The notes under the pieces were generated by a model. The model saw only the letters and a list, made by a program, of their open reading frames with translations, did not search any database and was not told where the DNA came from. A program made the position numbers and the translations under genes. Positions 3,045-63,649 of a DNA stretch of 64,000 bases are shown in pieces (position 1 is the first letter of the stretch; each line of letters opens with the position of its first letter). The stretch is from a virus. Lineage: Duplodnaviria > Heunggongvirae > Uroviricota > Caudoviricetes. The stretch lies in IMG/VR virus record IMGVR_UViG_2703718815_000003; one strand, 5' to 3'.

Positions 3045-3064
3045 GATAGTAAGTATGTACTTAC
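3045..3064. promoter_or_regulatory. class II palindromic motif (TAAGTA..TACTTA core)
   Basis: gatagtaagtatgtacttac; family of about 15 AT-rich palindromes upstream of genes. Confidence 0.45.
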
Positions 3065-3131
3065 AATACAAAAAAGCCCCGTAAGGATGGCGGGGCTGTC
3101 GTACTGTCGACTAATTGCCACTTGCACATTA

Positions 3132-3443
3132 TCAGGCTATTGCCATCACTGATGCTCTCTGAATCTCTTGCTGGGCCACGCGGTTAACTTCCATCAAAGC
3201 CAGTTCGAGCTGATGTTCCGGCCACATTCTTTGAAATGCCACCCAGCCTTTTCCACGCTGGCGACGAACATTCATTACATAACGAGTAAAGGTGTTTTTA
3301 TCGAAAGATACCGCTGTTTCACGGAACAGACGAATAGAGGTTCCATTGGCAACGATGTCCAGCAAAGTTAATTGAGCAACCAGCGCAGGCTTCTCTTTTC
3401 TCTTCTGGTCTTTGTCCAGACCAAGAACCAATGATTTTTTCAT
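3132..3443 (-). CDS. hypothetical protein (103 aa)
   Basis: Track ORF trimmed to ATG (MKKSLVLG...) with GGAG RBS. Confidence 0.5.
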   Translation of the reverse strand: MKKSLVLGLDKDQKRKEKPALVAQLTLLDIVANGTSIRLFRETAVSFDKNTFTRYVMNVRRQRGKGWVAFQRMWPEHQLELALMEVNRVAQQEIQRASVMAIA

Positions 3444-3454
3444 TACAACTCCGT

Positions 3455-3470
3455 AAACAACTTGTTTTCT
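3455..3470 (-). promoter_or_regulatory. class I palindromic motif
   Basis: aaacaacttgttttct. Confidence 0.5.
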
Positions 3471-3596
3471 CAATGGCGTAAATAATACCAGTAAGAAAAC
3501 GGCTACAAAGCATATTGATCAGGCGCATGAGCGATATGCAGGTTCTTCCCTGCGGCTATAGAGAAATTAAGCCAGCAATGCTGGCTTTGGTTGGGG

Positions 3597-3926
3597 TTAC
3601 TCGAATACTTCAAGAAACTCCTGAACGTCCCAATGCTGGACGAGGTGAAGATAGACCTTAGAAATCACGTCATTTTCGCTATCGCATGTGAAGTAGTACT
3701 TCTGGCTGCGGTTGTATGTGTCCACACAAAATTCGCTCATATCCATAAAGTCAGCATCTTCACCCATGTCGCAAATCATCAAAGCAGGTGCGTCATCACG
3801 AGTCATCAGCTCAAGCACCCACCGCGAATTGATCAGAGTGGAAGACCAACCTTCTAACTCATAAAACTGATCAAACTCTTTTTGAGTTAATTTCTTGATT
3901 TGGTTGATGTCGATATTTGCAAACAT
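3597..3926 (-). CDS. hypothetical acidic protein (109 aa)
   Basis: Track ORF trimmed to ATG (MFANIDIN...) with AAGGA RBS; D/E-rich. Confidence 0.5.
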   Translation of the reverse strand: MFANIDINQIKKLTQKEFDQFYELEGWSSTLINSRWVLELMTRDDAPALMICDMGEDADFMDMSEFCVDTYNRSQKYYFTCDSENDVISKVYLHLVQHWDVQEFLEVFE

Positions 3927-3938
3927 AAAGCAATCCTT

Positions 3939-3971
3939 AAACAACTTGTTTTCTCGTTGGTGTTATTATCG
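3939..3971 (-). promoter_or_regulatory. class I palindromic motif
   Basis: aaacaacttgttttctcgttggtgttattatcg. Confidence 0.5.
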
Positions 3972-61170: not shown

Positions 61171-61176
61171 GTGTTT

Positions 61177-61467
61177 TTATTCGGTTGTGACTTTTTTGAT
61201 CAAGGCCACTCTACGACTAGGTGTTCTTGTGATGGTGGCAGTGAATCGTTTCGCTTGGATAGTAATGGTTTCGTTCTCCTTAAGTTGCCCGTAGCGAGTT
61301 TCCACCAGGGTGCCAAGACGCCACAGACCATCATCGATACGTTTATGACTAGCAAATTTAATCAGCAACAGTTTTACGACTAACTGACCTACGTAAAAGG
61401 CGAATGCGACTCCGGCCGCTAAGCAATAGGTGGCCAACCACCAGTCCCAAGAAGTTAAATTGCTCAT
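61177..61467 (-). CDS. hypothetical protein with N-terminal TM segment (96 aa)
   Basis: Track ORF; ATGA-coupled. Confidence 0.45.
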   Translation of the reverse strand: MSNLTSWDWWLATYCLAAGVAFAFYVGQLVVKLLLIKFASHKRIDDGLWRLGTLVETRYGQLKENETITIQAKRFTATITRTPSRRVALIKKVTTE

Positions 61468-61616
61468 TTTCTAACCTTTGTTTCATGAACTACCCGATAC
61501 ACACGCTTTCCGATGCACAGTGTTTTGGTTTTAAGTTCCTGCTTAATTAAATCACGACAGATGCCGAAGCCGATAAGGAAGCCACCCATAAAAGCTAATG
61601 AGATGTATGGAATCAT
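61464..61616 (-). CDS. small protein (50 aa), translationally coupled
   Basis: MIPYISLAFMGGFLIGFGIC...; ATGA overlaps both neighbours; start coincides with GTATGGAATCAT motif copy. Confidence 0.3.
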   Translation of the reverse strand: MIPYISLAFMGGFLIGFGICRDLIKQELKTKTLCIGKRVYRVVHETKVRK

Positions 61617-61828
61617 TTTAACGCTCCTGATTCTACTAATTGCTGTAGCAATAATTTCCCTTTATCAGTTAACTGGTAGTTGGCCGAGCACCACGTTTCA
61701 GAAACGTTTGCAACCAACCCTAAACGCTCTAACTTAGCTCGCGTTTTAGGCTTCCAGTACTCAGGGAACTCCGGCCACTTACTGATTTCATGAAGCGTTT
61801 CTTTCTCCCTTTTACTTAATACGATCAT
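61613..61828 (-). CDS. hypothetical protein (71 aa)
   Basis: Track ORF; ATGA overlap with ligase stop. Confidence 0.45.
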   Translation of the reverse strand: MIVLSKREKETLHEISKWPEFPEYWKPKTRAKLERLGLVANVSETWCSANYQLTDKGKLLLQQLVESGALK

Positions 61829-63147
61829 TCTTTATCTCCGATTCGATCTTCGGTATCGCGTAAGCAACGCGGCCATTTCAGTCGTGGGTGGCGTAAGCTG
61901 CCATCAGGTGTTTTCTCGTGACAATGAACCTCGACAATACGACCACGGTACTTCTCTTTGTTGTTCCAGATCTCGTCCAGATATTTATGCTTAATGCCAC
62001 TCGCACGAACGATGACGCCGTTTTCAAGACGAATAACAATTTTTCCAAGCGTGTTGGCAAAACCAGAGTCCGGGTCGCCCGGCTCAAAATCGATAATTTC
62101 ACCATCTTCTGAATCTTCGTCTTTTAACTTCCACCAGCTGCGGGTACGTTTAAACTCGTAAACAGAGTTCGGATCTTTGCCCATCTCCCCTTCTTCGTTA
62201 TCGTCCAGGCGTTTCATGAAGCGTTCGATGAAGTCTTCGTGGCTATGGATGATGTAGAACGGATGTAGGTGAATGTCTTGCGCGTAGTCTTCACTGCGAT
62301 CGTTTTTGAACAACGCCACGAGAATAGCCAGGCGCTCTTTCAGCTTCATACCTGTCTTTGCATACTCTTTGGATTTAGCCTGTGCCCGCCATTCCGGTAG
62401 GAAGAAGTCGAAAACATGATAAATAGCGCCAATTGCCTGCACGTTCTTTTTGCGCAATGCAGATACGGACTGGTTAAATGAACCGGCTGTTCCTTCACCA
62501 TCGAAGAAGATGTGTTTGTGGCCTGAAAGTTTGCCTAATTCGAGCATGGCTGGCTTTAGGTGATCGAGAGACGTGATTGGATTACCAGTACGAGAAAGGA
62601 AGTTCACCTCTTCCTCGTCAACAATAACCTCGCAAATTACTCGCAAACCATCGAGCTTAAGGCTGCCAATCATCGGCCATTTTGCTTTAGGATTTGGCTT
62701 GAAGGGGTATTTGTCGCCTTTTTCTTTATACGGTGACGCCAGCTGCACCTCAAATTTCGGAATGGGATTTTCAAAAACCTTGTTGCATAGGCTAATCCCA
62801 ACACCCGCTTTCGGGTCTTTTAAGAGGAAACGACGGAACACGTCCTGCCCATCGGCGCACATTGACGCCACGATAGACTCAACAGCAGCTATTGCTGCGT
62901 TCCCCGTCAGCTCGCGAGAGGCCAGCTTATTCAGTATATCAATGGCTTTTTCGTCACTTGGGACGGACTCACTAAGCGGCTCTGCCACTTTGTATTTCTT
63001 TACCCCAAAACGGATGAAAGGGTTGAGCATCAATGAAACCATGCTTTGCTCGAAGTCATCCATGTTGGCCAATGCCTCTTTTTTTGCATTGGTTCCCATA
63101 GCTTTCATTTCGTCCAGCTTATGCTTAAGTGCGATCAACTTTTTCAT
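61825..63147 (-). CDS. ATP-dependent DNA ligase
   Basis: 440 aa; motif I SLKLDGLR (KxDG); motif III FFDGE; later WWKLK. Confidence 0.8.
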   Translation of the reverse strand: MKKLIALKHKLDEMKAMGTNAKKEALANMDDFEQSMVSLMLNPFIRFGVKKYKVAEPLSESVPSDEKAIDILNKLASRELTGNAAIAAVESIVASMCADGQDVFRRFLLKDPKAGVGISLCNKVFENPIPKFEVQLASPYKEKGDKYPFKPNPKAKWPMIGSLKLDGLRVICEVIVDEEEVNFLSRTGNPITSLDHLKPAMLELGKLSGHKHIFFDGEGTAGSFNQSVSALRKKNVQAIGAIYHVFDFFLPEWRAQAKSKEYAKTGMKLKERLAILVALFKNDRSEDYAQDIHLHPFYIIHSHEDFIERFMKRLDDNEEGEMGKDPNSVYEFKRTRSWWKLKDEDSEDGEIIDFEPGDPDSGFANTLGKIVIRLENGVIVRASGIKHKYLDEIWNNKEKYRGRIVEVHCHEKTPDGSLRHPRLKWPRCLRDTEDRIGDKE

Positions 63148-63626
63148 TGTTGTTTTGCCTCCATATGTTGATCGATTTGCTCATGTGTTTCTTTTGTTGT
63201 TTCTTCAAGCAACGCCGCATACACGTCAGTGATCGCTGTTTGTGATGTGGTGCTCTTCTTAACCATGCTATTAATCGTTACACTGTCACGTTTTCGTTTT
63301 ATAGTTCTGGCTTGTTTATTCCGTTCTTCAACCTCCTTAATGAGCGCGGTCATATCTTCGAAATACAGAGATTCTCCTTTACGAATCTCTTCAACCATCA
63401 TTTTTAACGCCTTGCATTTGCCTGCTTTGATAGCGGTTGCGCACGACTGGAATGAAGTTCGAGGAAGACGATTTTCTTTGAAGGCAAGAATGGTGTGCTG
63501 GCAAACGGAGTAGCTGCAATATGCCGACTCACCGTTTATCTTTACTTCCTCACAACGAAGTGAATAACCATTATTTCCTGAAATAGAAGGGATTTTTGAC
63601 AAATCAGCTTTCACAACTACCGCCAT
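63144..63626 (-). CDS. hypothetical protein (160 aa)
   Basis: Track ORF; ATGA overlap with ligase start. Confidence 0.5.
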   Translation of the reverse strand: MAVVVKADLSKIPSISGNNGYSLRCEEVKINGESAYCSYSVCQHTILAFKENRLPRTSFQSCATAIKAGKCKALKMMVEEIRKGESLYFEDMTALIKEVEERNKQARTIKRKRDSVTINSMVKKSTTSQTAITDVYAALLEETTKETHEQIDQHMEAKQQ

Positions 63627-63636
63627 AAATAATCTT

Positions 63637-63649
63637 GTACTTACCTATC
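63637..63649. promoter_or_regulatory. class II motif (partial)
   Basis: gtacttacctatc. Confidence 0.35.

Follow-up and report, generated by a model that had tools for sequence, protein, structure and literature searches.

Palindromes that recur at gene boundaries across a 64,000-nucleotide (nt) stretch of Caudoviricetes DNA (IMG/VR record IMGVR_UViG_2703718815_000003, hereafter the window) share a 20-nt dyad that is conserved in related phage-plasmids. The interpretation that we favor, with modest confidence, is that these palindromes are dispersed operators of a phage-plasmid-encoded repressor that would silence lytic operons in the plasmid state. The window is 98 to 99% identical to Cyrano (pLF82, a phage-plasmid of Escherichia coli LF82) and to CMS-2020a; its identity to Klebsiella phage-plasmids and to Salmonella phage SSU5 is about 76%. 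It therefore belongs to the SSU5/pHCM2/pMT1 phage-plasmid family. Elements of this type make up about 950 sequenced plasmids from E. coli, Klebsiella, Salmonella, Yersinia pestis, Enterobacter, and Acinetobacter. Most genes of the window lie on the minus strand; their names and boundaries were taken from the Cyrano annotation. In LF82, Cyrano is a plasmid prophage present at 5.5 copies and is induced 39-fold by ciprofloxacin (PMC9928086). The lysogen expresses few Cyrano genes, namely toxin-antitoxin pairs, genes of the parA operon, some hypothetical genes, and CYRAN_45, a "putative repressor" (PMC9928086).

The initial annotation had described AT-rich palindromes of the form (GA)TAAGTA...TACTTA(TC) at about 15 gene starts. 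Taken literally, as TAAGTA-N(0-12)-TACTTA, this pattern has only three matches, at 3050 and 61148/61152; a related, imperfect palindrome is found at every one of the 15 coordinates. The exact-pattern search gave way to a search for half-site pairs and to an iterated palindromic 24-nt matrix. Pairs of the form TARGTA-N2/N6-TACYTA occur 10 times in the window against 0.12 expected, and ATARGTAAGTACTTACYTAT at up to three mismatches has 9 matches against 0.00 expected (100 shuffles). In the position-specific matrix scan, which had been proposed as a check, 18 window sites stand out clearly at 15.6 to 30.6 bits, the next best match reaching 9.6 bits. The matrix yields 0.2 matches at 14 bits or more in shuffled windows and 18 matches in 1.18 Mb of unrelated genomic DNA, about 1 per 65 kb. 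It also shows that the original list was incomplete, adding sites at 28367, 41133, and 54787, and that two of the listed positions, 22361 and 63637, carry one good half-site each and are not full palindromes. The sites at 53456 and 56120 score low with the ungapped matrix, yet both are kept at orthologous positions in SSU5 and in Klebsiella pJN2-26. Two other matrix matches were set aside: that at 22728 is a false positive in the AT-rich loop of another hairpin element, and that at 53439, which overlaps the 53456 site, is AT-rich promoter-like sequence.

The anatomy of the motif was derived from 69 sites of three complete genomes, aligned in gene direction. Its core unit is the 20-nt dyad, with halves ATARGTAAGT and ACTTACYTAT and AT-rich flanks; by position, the information content reads A3 T4 A5 R6 G7 T8 A9 A10 G11 T12 to the left of the center and A13 C14 T15 T16 A17 C18 Y19 T20 A21 T22 to the right. 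The A/T-rich flanks mirror each other, so both ends of the motif read TATYAT outward, and the TAAG/GTAA periodicity within each half explains why several registers (N2 and N6 spacers) had been noted initially. A residual asymmetry, GTAAGT, is on the plus strand at seven window sites and on the minus strand at five, with the genes nearly all on the minus strand. Many copies start no more than about 15 nt past the preceding stop codon, and the stop-rich left half of the motif (TGA TAG .. TAA) often itself provides the stop codon of the preceding gene.

With gene boundaries as in Cyrano, 17 of 18 sites fall between genes, though open reading frames (ORFs) cover about 88% of the window. The sites are as follows, together with the hairpin at the nrdA site.

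3047 to 3070, no strand: motif site with inner palindrome TAAGTA-TG-TACTTA at 3050 to 3063; intrinsic terminator upstream, ATG of the CYRAN_110 homologue 41 nt downstream; overlaps the minus-strand promoter-like hexamers TTGTAA-17-TAGAAT and TTGTAT-17-TATCAT; SSU5 orthologue at 93163.
16206 to 16229: motif site directly past the stop codon of the DUF4942 gene (16227 to 17912) and 40 nt upstream of an Ead/Ea22-like gene (start 16165); orthologues at Cyrano 84618, SSU5 84176, and pJN2 20933.
21175 to 21198: motif site overlapping the stop codon of an RNase H-like gene; the CYRAN_83 homologue lies 127 nt downstream; orthologues exist.
22351 to 22374: site with one strong half (TGATAGATAAGT), just past the stop codon of the CYRAN_80 homologue; orthologues at Cyrano 78475 and SSU5 78707.
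23391 to 23414: motif site 9 nt before the ATG (23381) of the Dam methyltransferase gene; a predicted promoter, TTGCCA-17-AAAAAT, ends at its upstream edge; orthologues in four genomes.
28230 to 28253: motif site in front of thyX, with 13 nt between it and the GTG (28216) and 4 nt between it and the GAGG Shine-Dalgarno sequence; intrinsic terminator 47 nt upstream.
28367 to 28390: second site in the mazG-thyX spacer, overlapping the stop codon of the MazG-like gene and upstream of a terminator at 28301 to 28319.
32942 to 32965: top-scoring site (30.6 bits), 6 nt past the stop codon of a RuvC-like gene and 43 nt upstream of the nrdA ATG (32898); conserved in SSU5, pJN2, Kluyvera, and Morganella.
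32916 to 32937, minus strand: terminator-like hairpin GGGCCACTATATTTAGTGGCCC with T-run; 4 nt separate it from the nrdA motif site upstream.
37626 to 37649: motif site 110 nt upstream of an SbcD-like gene (start 37515).
41133 to 41156: motif site new relative to the original list, its last base overlapped by the ATG of a small membrane-protein gene (CYRAN_60 homologue); all 24 bases unchanged at SSU5 58072, one base different at Cyrano 59397.
43086 to 43109: motif site within a minus-strand sigma70-like promoter, TTGAAA (43113 to 43108)-17-TATCAT (43090 to 43085), past a terminator and 30 nt upstream of a membrane-protein gene (start 43055); SSU5 55693 is in the same register.
47873 to 47896: motif site 11 nt past the stop codon of a UvsY-like gene and 82 nt upstream of a gp32-like single-stranded DNA-binding protein gene (start 47790).
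53456 to 53479: variant site with the right outer arm shifted by 1 nt, 15 nt past the cobT-like stop codon and 56 nt upstream of a cobS-like gene; orthologues at SSU5 45122 and pJN2 93366.
54787 to 54810: motif copy within the cobT-like coding sequence; a similar place is kept in Cyrano, SSU5, and pJN2-26.
56115 to 56138: weaker site whose core is perfect (GGTAAGCACTTACC), 26 nt before the ATG of an Xre-type helix-turn-helix (HTH) gene, in the divergent region between this gene and a cro-like gene; pJN2-26 orthologue at 90497.
58278 to 58301: motif site 45 nt ahead of the glutaredoxin operon, which starts at about 58232; pJN2 orthologue at 85595.
61145 to 61168: motif site 8 nt past the stop codon of the CYRAN_39 homologue, heading a nonannotated stretch of about 600 nt and a tRNA cluster.
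63627 to 63650: only one half is strong (CGATAGGTAAGT); the site directly borders the annotated start of the CYRAN_35 homologue and has orthologues at Cyrano 35605 and pJN2 80736.

The single intragenic copy, at 54787, falls in the acidic low-complexity part of the cobT-like gene, where the surrounding sequence differs among Cyrano, SSU5, and pJN2-26. Elsewhere the motif keeps no fixed distance to the next start codon, the range being -1 to more than 100 nt. The very short distances pointed out initially are borne out (dam, 9 nt; thyX, 13 nt; CYRAN_35 homologue, 0 nt; overlap with the ATG of the CYRAN_60 homologue), and the motif touches the ribosome-binding site at dam, at thyX, in the terL-portal gap, and at the CYRAN_31 homologue.

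Orthologous motif positions are shared with SSU5, the rest of Cyrano, Klebsiella pJN2-26, two Kluyvera contigs, Morganella, and Y. pestis pMT1. At orthologous sites, the 20-nt core is 85 to 87% identical, compared with 45 to 55% for the flanks. Genomes outside the training of the matrix carry 25 sites (SSU5), 22 sites (pJN2-26), and 12 sites in the first 50 kb (pMT1), and related genomes have 22 to 27 motif sites each, in early and late modules alike. Outside the window, the late region has sites in the terL-portal gap, past the major capsid gene, and ahead of tail genes and of the holin gene. With about 25 to 30 copies, the motif thus extends genome-wide and is not a feature of early genes, and the initial description of about 15 gene starts was too narrow, since late structural operons are included. 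A search for relatives based on the ThyX locus contributed little, 4 of 80 loci being useful and the rest mostly unrelated cellular thyX genes.

The accessory region (window 1 to 16 kb) has almost no sites. The same is true of the promoter regions of most genes reported as expressed in lysogens, among them the toxin-antitoxin pairs, the parA operon, and CYRAN_43 (expression from PMC9928086). At the place of CYRAN_43, reported as by far the highest-expressed Cyrano gene in lysogens (PMC9928086), the window shows a local gene replacement relative to its closest relative: where Cyrano has this 184-amino-acid gene, the window has a 373-amino-acid ORF (58382 to 59503, plus strand).

The motif has counterparts of different sequence in other lineages. 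A relative from Acinetobacter baumannii, whose major capsid protein is 56 to 59% identical and whose gene order is the same, carries 30 copies of a variant dyad with halves ATCAGTCAGT and ACTGACTGAT, in which 3 of the 10 half-site positions differ. This variant stands at matching places: in the terL-portal gap, past the capsid gene (followed by a terminator), and before nrdA, nrdB, thyX, and parB. The 600-nt region separating its Xre-HTH gene from a divergent cro-like gene holds three copies, at what by analogy would be the classic position of immunity operators. In a Photobacterium relative, a third variant, ATAAGTAAGC-N-TGACTTAT, precedes nrdA and thyX. Judged from their orthologous places, the enterobacterial, Acinetobacter, and Photobacterium dyads appear to be co-evolved variants.

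How the two arms vary bears on the kind of molecule that is recognized. At the R6/Y19 pair, the 69 sites comprise 33 Watson-Crick, 14 G.U, and 14 A.C combinations, against 30.6, 15.2, and 15.3 expected for independent arms; over all arm positions on the mRNA strand, G.U is seen 69 times and A.C 56 times. The aligned sites show no compensatory changes or covariation between the arms, and thus neither the compensatory pairs nor the retention of G.U with avoidance of A.C that mark a structured RNA. Hairpins predicted for the motif as RNA are weak (0 to -7.3 kcal/mol, two sites lacking any fold), a search of the motif against Rfam matched no family, and the conserved central GTAC is itself palindromic. 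Independent arms, with A.C as common as G.U, therefore argue for a protein-DNA site rather than an RNA hairpin, and the overall pattern resembles the signature of a dimeric protein on double-stranded DNA. Regulation through a 5' leader RNA, one of the two possibilities raised in the initial annotation, thus finds no support. Nor is the motif an intrinsic terminator, its stem being A+T-rich and any nearby terminator a separate hairpin, or a LexA box, since it lacks CTGT-N8-ACAG.

The other possibility raised, an operator rather than a conventional promoter, agrees with the symmetry of the motif, the lack of a directional -10/-35 signature, the variable distance to the start codon, and strong purifying selection on its sequence and not on a base-paired structure. 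Over the flanks of the 69 sites, -10-like hexamers number 143 in gene direction and 144 in mirror image and so show no polarity; a -10-like TATYAT hexamer starts from motif position 20 at 36 sites and occupies the mirrored position at 38. The flank information profile of the aligned sites contains no conserved -35 upstream of the motif. Consensus sigma70 promoter-like sites at 15 to 34 kb of the window number 15, about half of the 29.4 ± 5.9 found in shuffled sequence, and two motif sites in this interval coincide with such a match. The consensus scan, the flank profile, and the mirror count together led us to reject the promoter hypothesis for the enterobacterial set. The motif is thus not a sigma70 promoter overall; the individual sites at 43086 and 3047 do fit one. 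A clean promoter register is seen at 43086 and its SSU5 orthologue (TTGAAA-17-TATCAT), at 3047 (TTGTAA-17-TAGAAT), and inside the end of the portal gene (TTGAAA-17-TATGAT). In Acinetobacter, TATACT replaces the gene-proximal outer arm in seven sites and the distal arm in none; the next start codon is at least 31 nt away in all five TATACT copies measured, as expected for copies built into promoters, and the fully symmetric copies include those abutting ribosome-binding sites. Wherever a promoter can be read (43086; SSU5 3542 and 55693; the Acinetobacter TATACT copies), the dyad spans about -29 to -10, a position that implies occlusion, that is, exclusion of polymerase by a repressor, rather than activation.

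The leading alternative, which we regard as unlikely, makes the dyad a positive-control element or phage-specific promoter at which an early phage activator or sigma-like factor would recruit host RNA polymerase and switch on the lytic operons. Late promoters of phage P1 consist of a -10 and an inverted repeat near -22 and depend on Lpa. An activator would account for the depletion of consensus sigma70 promoters, for the TATYAT end at 36 of 69 sites when most sites are without a -35, for the A/T-rich, UP-element-like upstream flank, and for the restriction of TATACT to the gene-proximal arm in Acinetobacter; it would also suit the highly expressed late genes that are preceded by sites and the several sites past terminators, where a new promoter is needed. 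The element is symmetric, however, with the -10-like hexamer mirrored just as often, and a dyad at -29 to -10 overlaps the sigma contacts, as a repressor would. At no fewer than six loci the motif lies 0 to 4 nt from a Shine-Dalgarno sequence or over a start codon, so that a transcript starting about 7 nt past the hexamer would begin inside or after the ribosome-binding site. The conserved intragenic copy, the site before the HTH gene, which is expressed in lysogeny, and the wide range of distances to the gene also speak against activation.

At nrdA, the order observed is motif, 4 nt, a 9-bp G+C-rich hairpin with T-run, and start codon, and this order is kept in Cyrano, SSU5, pJN2-26, and Kluyvera. 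The initial annotation called it attenuator-like. The order itself holds; a nrdA-specific attenuator does not, because the motif is followed by a hairpin in the same order past the major capsid gene and a minor tail gene. The Acinetobacter relative likewise has motif and then hairpin before its nrdA and nrdB operons. Coupling to terminators is rare, a canonical terminator lying within 90 nt at 15 of the 69 sites and at none of the other 54. If transcription started about 7 nt past TATYAT, the RNA would carry the nrdA hairpin at its 5' end; the hairpin may instead serve only as the terminator of the preceding operon.

From the motif, its symmetry, its conservation, its variants, and its positions we infer binding by a protein, repression, and a likely binder. 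One dimeric regulator encoded by the phage-plasmid would bind the palindromes, whose roughly 25 to 30 copies per genome would mark nearly every lytic unit, from replication, recombination, and nucleotide metabolism to packaging, head, tail, and lysis. While the element is a plasmid prophage, binding of this protein would keep the marked units silent. At some sites, such as 43086, the operator would fill the spacer and the first -10 bases of a sigma70 promoter with a weak -35, excluding RNA polymerase; at others, past a stop codon, before a Shine-Dalgarno sequence, or inside a gene, it would act as a roadblock downstream of the promoter. The binder would most likely be the Xre-type HTH protein, with a weaker site before its own gene. 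This gene and its divergent neighbor are as follows.

56165 to 56551, plus strand: Xre-type HTH protein of 128 amino acids, CYRAN_45 "putative repressor."
55702 to 55914, minus strand: 70-amino-acid gene in cro-like position, divergent from the HTH gene; heads the cobT/cobS/DNA polymerase III operon.

Several observations make the Xre-HTH protein the likeliest candidate binder. Its gene is carried by about 865 related plasmids, in every case adjacent to the integrase, and occupies a cI-like position in the E. coli, Klebsiella, and Acinetobacter elements, the Acinetobacter relative sharing the synteny with the cro-like gene. The recognition helix is conserved between E. coli and Klebsiella, and the Acinetobacter homologue is 39% identical. 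CYRAN_45, its counterpart, is expressed in LF82 lysogens (PMC9928086). Autoregulation of the HTH gene, suggested in the initial annotation, is plausible in that the site 26 nt upstream is kept in pJN2-26 and three variant sites lie in the corresponding Acinetobacter region; the suggestion is weakened by SSU5, which keeps the motif without this HTH gene, and the protein stays a candidate. In favor of the candidate, on the other hand, the element that lacks the gene, SSU5, entered the database as a phage isolate and not as a plasmid. The plasmid pMT1, with 12 sites at 14 bits or more in its first 50 kb, retains phage structural genes and also has the Xre-HTH and FljA-family genes.

A number of points weigh against the repressor interpretation or against this choice of binder. 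Repression was told from activation by geometry. Most sites are without a recognizable -35 and consensus sigma70 promoters are depleted, and lytic transcription may therefore need a positive factor. The three loci at which the motif lies directly upstream of a strong terminator hairpin are not explained by a simple operator model. As to the binder, SSU5 has intact sites in a genome lacking the Xre-HTH gene, E. coli and Klebsiella elements with an identical motif have Xre-HTH proteins that share only 56% identity, and a simple Xre dimer would be expected to read a half-site shorter than the fully conserved 10 nt seen here. Further conserved proteins are candidates for DNA binding: a FljA-family protein, two ParB-like proteins, and the homologues of CYRAN_37 and CYRAN_123. 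By eye the last two, both small, resemble winged-helix proteins, and searches found no family match and no relatives in the PDB. A single-sequence AlphaFold model of the window's 71-amino-acid protein reached a predicted local distance difference test score (pLDDT) of 57 and was not used.

The ParB-like proteins raise a second alternative, that the palindromes serve no transcriptional purpose and are centromere-like, condensation-related, or replication-related sites. The linear phage-plasmid N15 carries four centromere repeats at dispersed positions, and plasmid RK2 has 12 scattered operators for KorB. Here, every lineage, Acinetobacter included, retains two ParB-family genes, the divergent region between uvsW and parB contains one site (Cyrano 105105, Acinetobacter 69361), and the palindromes are spread across the whole replicon. 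We nevertheless judge this very improbable, as the sites follow gene boundaries (17 of 18 intergenic) and lytic modules and not the partition or replication regions, with none near parA or repA. A KorB-like binder, moreover, would still be a transcriptional repressor, and the alternative would then collapse into the repressor interpretation with a different protein.

Least probable of the alternatives is an RNA-level element, a transcribed hairpin bound by a translational repressor, a processing enzyme, or an N/nut-like antitermination complex. It would explain copies past stop codons, before Shine-Dalgarno sequences (abutted at dam, thyX, portal, and the CYRAN_31 homologue), and upstream of terminators, including the order of stop codon, motif, and terminator at the major capsid, tail, and nrdA loci; nutR of phage lambda is placed similarly, between cro and tR1. 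A suitable protein could be sought in the FljA family: a full-length member (PF03614, E 1e-80) is encoded just beyond the start of the window, at Cyrano 14080 to 14601, and the gene is found in about 830 SSU5-like enterobacterial plasmids, including those of Klebsiella. Klebsiella is not known to be flagellated, and the role of the gene there would therefore not be flagellar phase control. FljA, a chromosomal relative, is reported to prevent the translation of fliC mRNA (PMC2652032), and no solved structure for the family was found. The lack of covariation, A.C pairs as frequent as G.U, weak or absent hairpins, and the absence of an Rfam match all contradict an RNA element, as do a palindromic GTAC center that fits a dimer site and not a loop and an asymmetry that runs either way relative to transcription (7 versus 5 in the window). 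The Acinetobacter relatives, moreover, have a variant motif system without a FljA-family gene. FljA was rejected as the binder on this last ground and on a comparison with the E. coli fliC leader, which has only ATAGG..TAA in common with the motif, not a significant match. A host-factor site was dismissed because the exact palindrome, among 2.9 million viral contigs in IMG/VR, is confined to SSU5-like elements; no E. coli regulator consensus is known to match the motif.

Other elements were noted in the window. A LexA-box-like sequence, CTGTATAAGTAAACAG, lies at 57678 to 57693, about 29 nt upstream of the integrase start, and is kept before the integrase in Cyrano and pJN2-26; a second LexA-like box (10415 to 10430) lies 19 nt upstream of a UmuD-like gene (10007 to 10396). 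The integrase gene (56546 to 57649, minus strand) is convergent with the Xre-HTH gene, whose last 6 nt it overlaps, so that SOS-driven convergent transcription could be a route to induction. The hairpin element at 22706 to 22770 consists of a long stem, AGCCTGCTTC(C/T)GTAT, a loop of about 30 AT-rich nt, and ATACGGAAGCAGGCT, followed by a T-run, and recurs near Cyrano 31170, 78090, and 108350, SSU5 78310, and pJN2 15280. Downstream of the 61145 motif, the stretch of about 600 nt at 60590 to 61145 (minus strand) has no annotated ORF and is 78 to 80% conserved in Cyrano, SSU5, and pJN2-26, a level that matches coding DNA. It lies upstream of a tRNA-Asn/Tyr/Thr/Ser cluster (59852 to 60398) and may be an unannotated RNA or small gene.

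Our literature search found no description of the motif or of lysogeny control in the SSU5 family, which is among the commonest phage-plasmid families of clinical Enterobacterales and includes pMT1 of Y. pestis and pHCM2 of Salmonella Typhi. If the repressor interpretation is true, a single operator would map the regulon and the operon boundaries of these elements, one 24-mer would be a handle for finding their master regulator, and variants of the motif would predict immunity groups. There would also be a target for forcing or blocking the induction of elements with resistance and virulence genes, and dispersed-operator silencing of prophages, as in P1, L5, and phiC31, would extend to another large group, with a symmetric site. 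A fuller version, which we put forward as tentative and hold less firmly than the operator interpretation itself, has the whole lytic programme silenced by a dyad-based, stoperator-like network. One small Xre-type repressor would act at about 25 to 30 promoter and gene-boundary roadblock sites, lineage variants of the motif would define immunity groups, and SOS induction would perhaps proceed via a LexA-controlled integrase transcript converging on the repressor gene.

The closest functional analogue, by comparison of the overall arrangement, would be the stoperator/operator network of Cluster A mycobacteriophages such as L5 and Bxb1, in which 20 to 30 repressor sites are distributed genome-wide in short intergenic spaces of early and late operons (PMC6550527). 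A few L5-type sites lie within promoters, and most are off-promoter stoperators that block elongation; motif and repressor co-diversify, and some members of the cluster are extrachromosomal, parA-bearing prophages (PMC6550527). Like those of L5, the sites described here number in the tens genome-wide, are mainly intergenic in lytic operons, and diverge in sequence with lineage. Unlike the L5 sites, which are 13 to 14 bp long, have no dyad, are bound by a monomer, and are oriented with transcription, they form a 20-nt dyad with equally conserved halves and no orientation bias. The hosts, phage lineage, and repressor family are unrelated, and roadblock action is predicted here from position. The C1 protein of P1 is likewise the lysogeny repressor of a phage-plasmid and controls many scattered operons through a conserved operator, with no single lambda-like immunity region. 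Its operators are asymmetric 17-mers of unrelated sequence, and P1 late genes are separately under the Lpa activator, whereas one motif here also precedes the late structural operons; no C1 homologue is annotated in Cyrano. In the temperate phage phiC31, repressor-bound conserved inverted repeats (CIRs) occupy many intergenic and promoter positions; these are 17 bp long, differ in sequence, are concentrated in the early region, and belong to an actinobacterial host and unrelated proteins. KorB and KorA of the IncP plasmid RK2 provide about a dozen palindromic operators plasmid-wide, through which one protein co-ordinately represses many operons. ParB-like genes are present here as well, but unlike those of RK2, the sites track phage lytic modules and bear no similarity to the KorB operator (TTTAGCSGCTAAA). 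The palindromes would thus function like the L5, P1, phiC31, and RK2 systems and, sharing no common sequence with them, work like them without being a member of any of these families.

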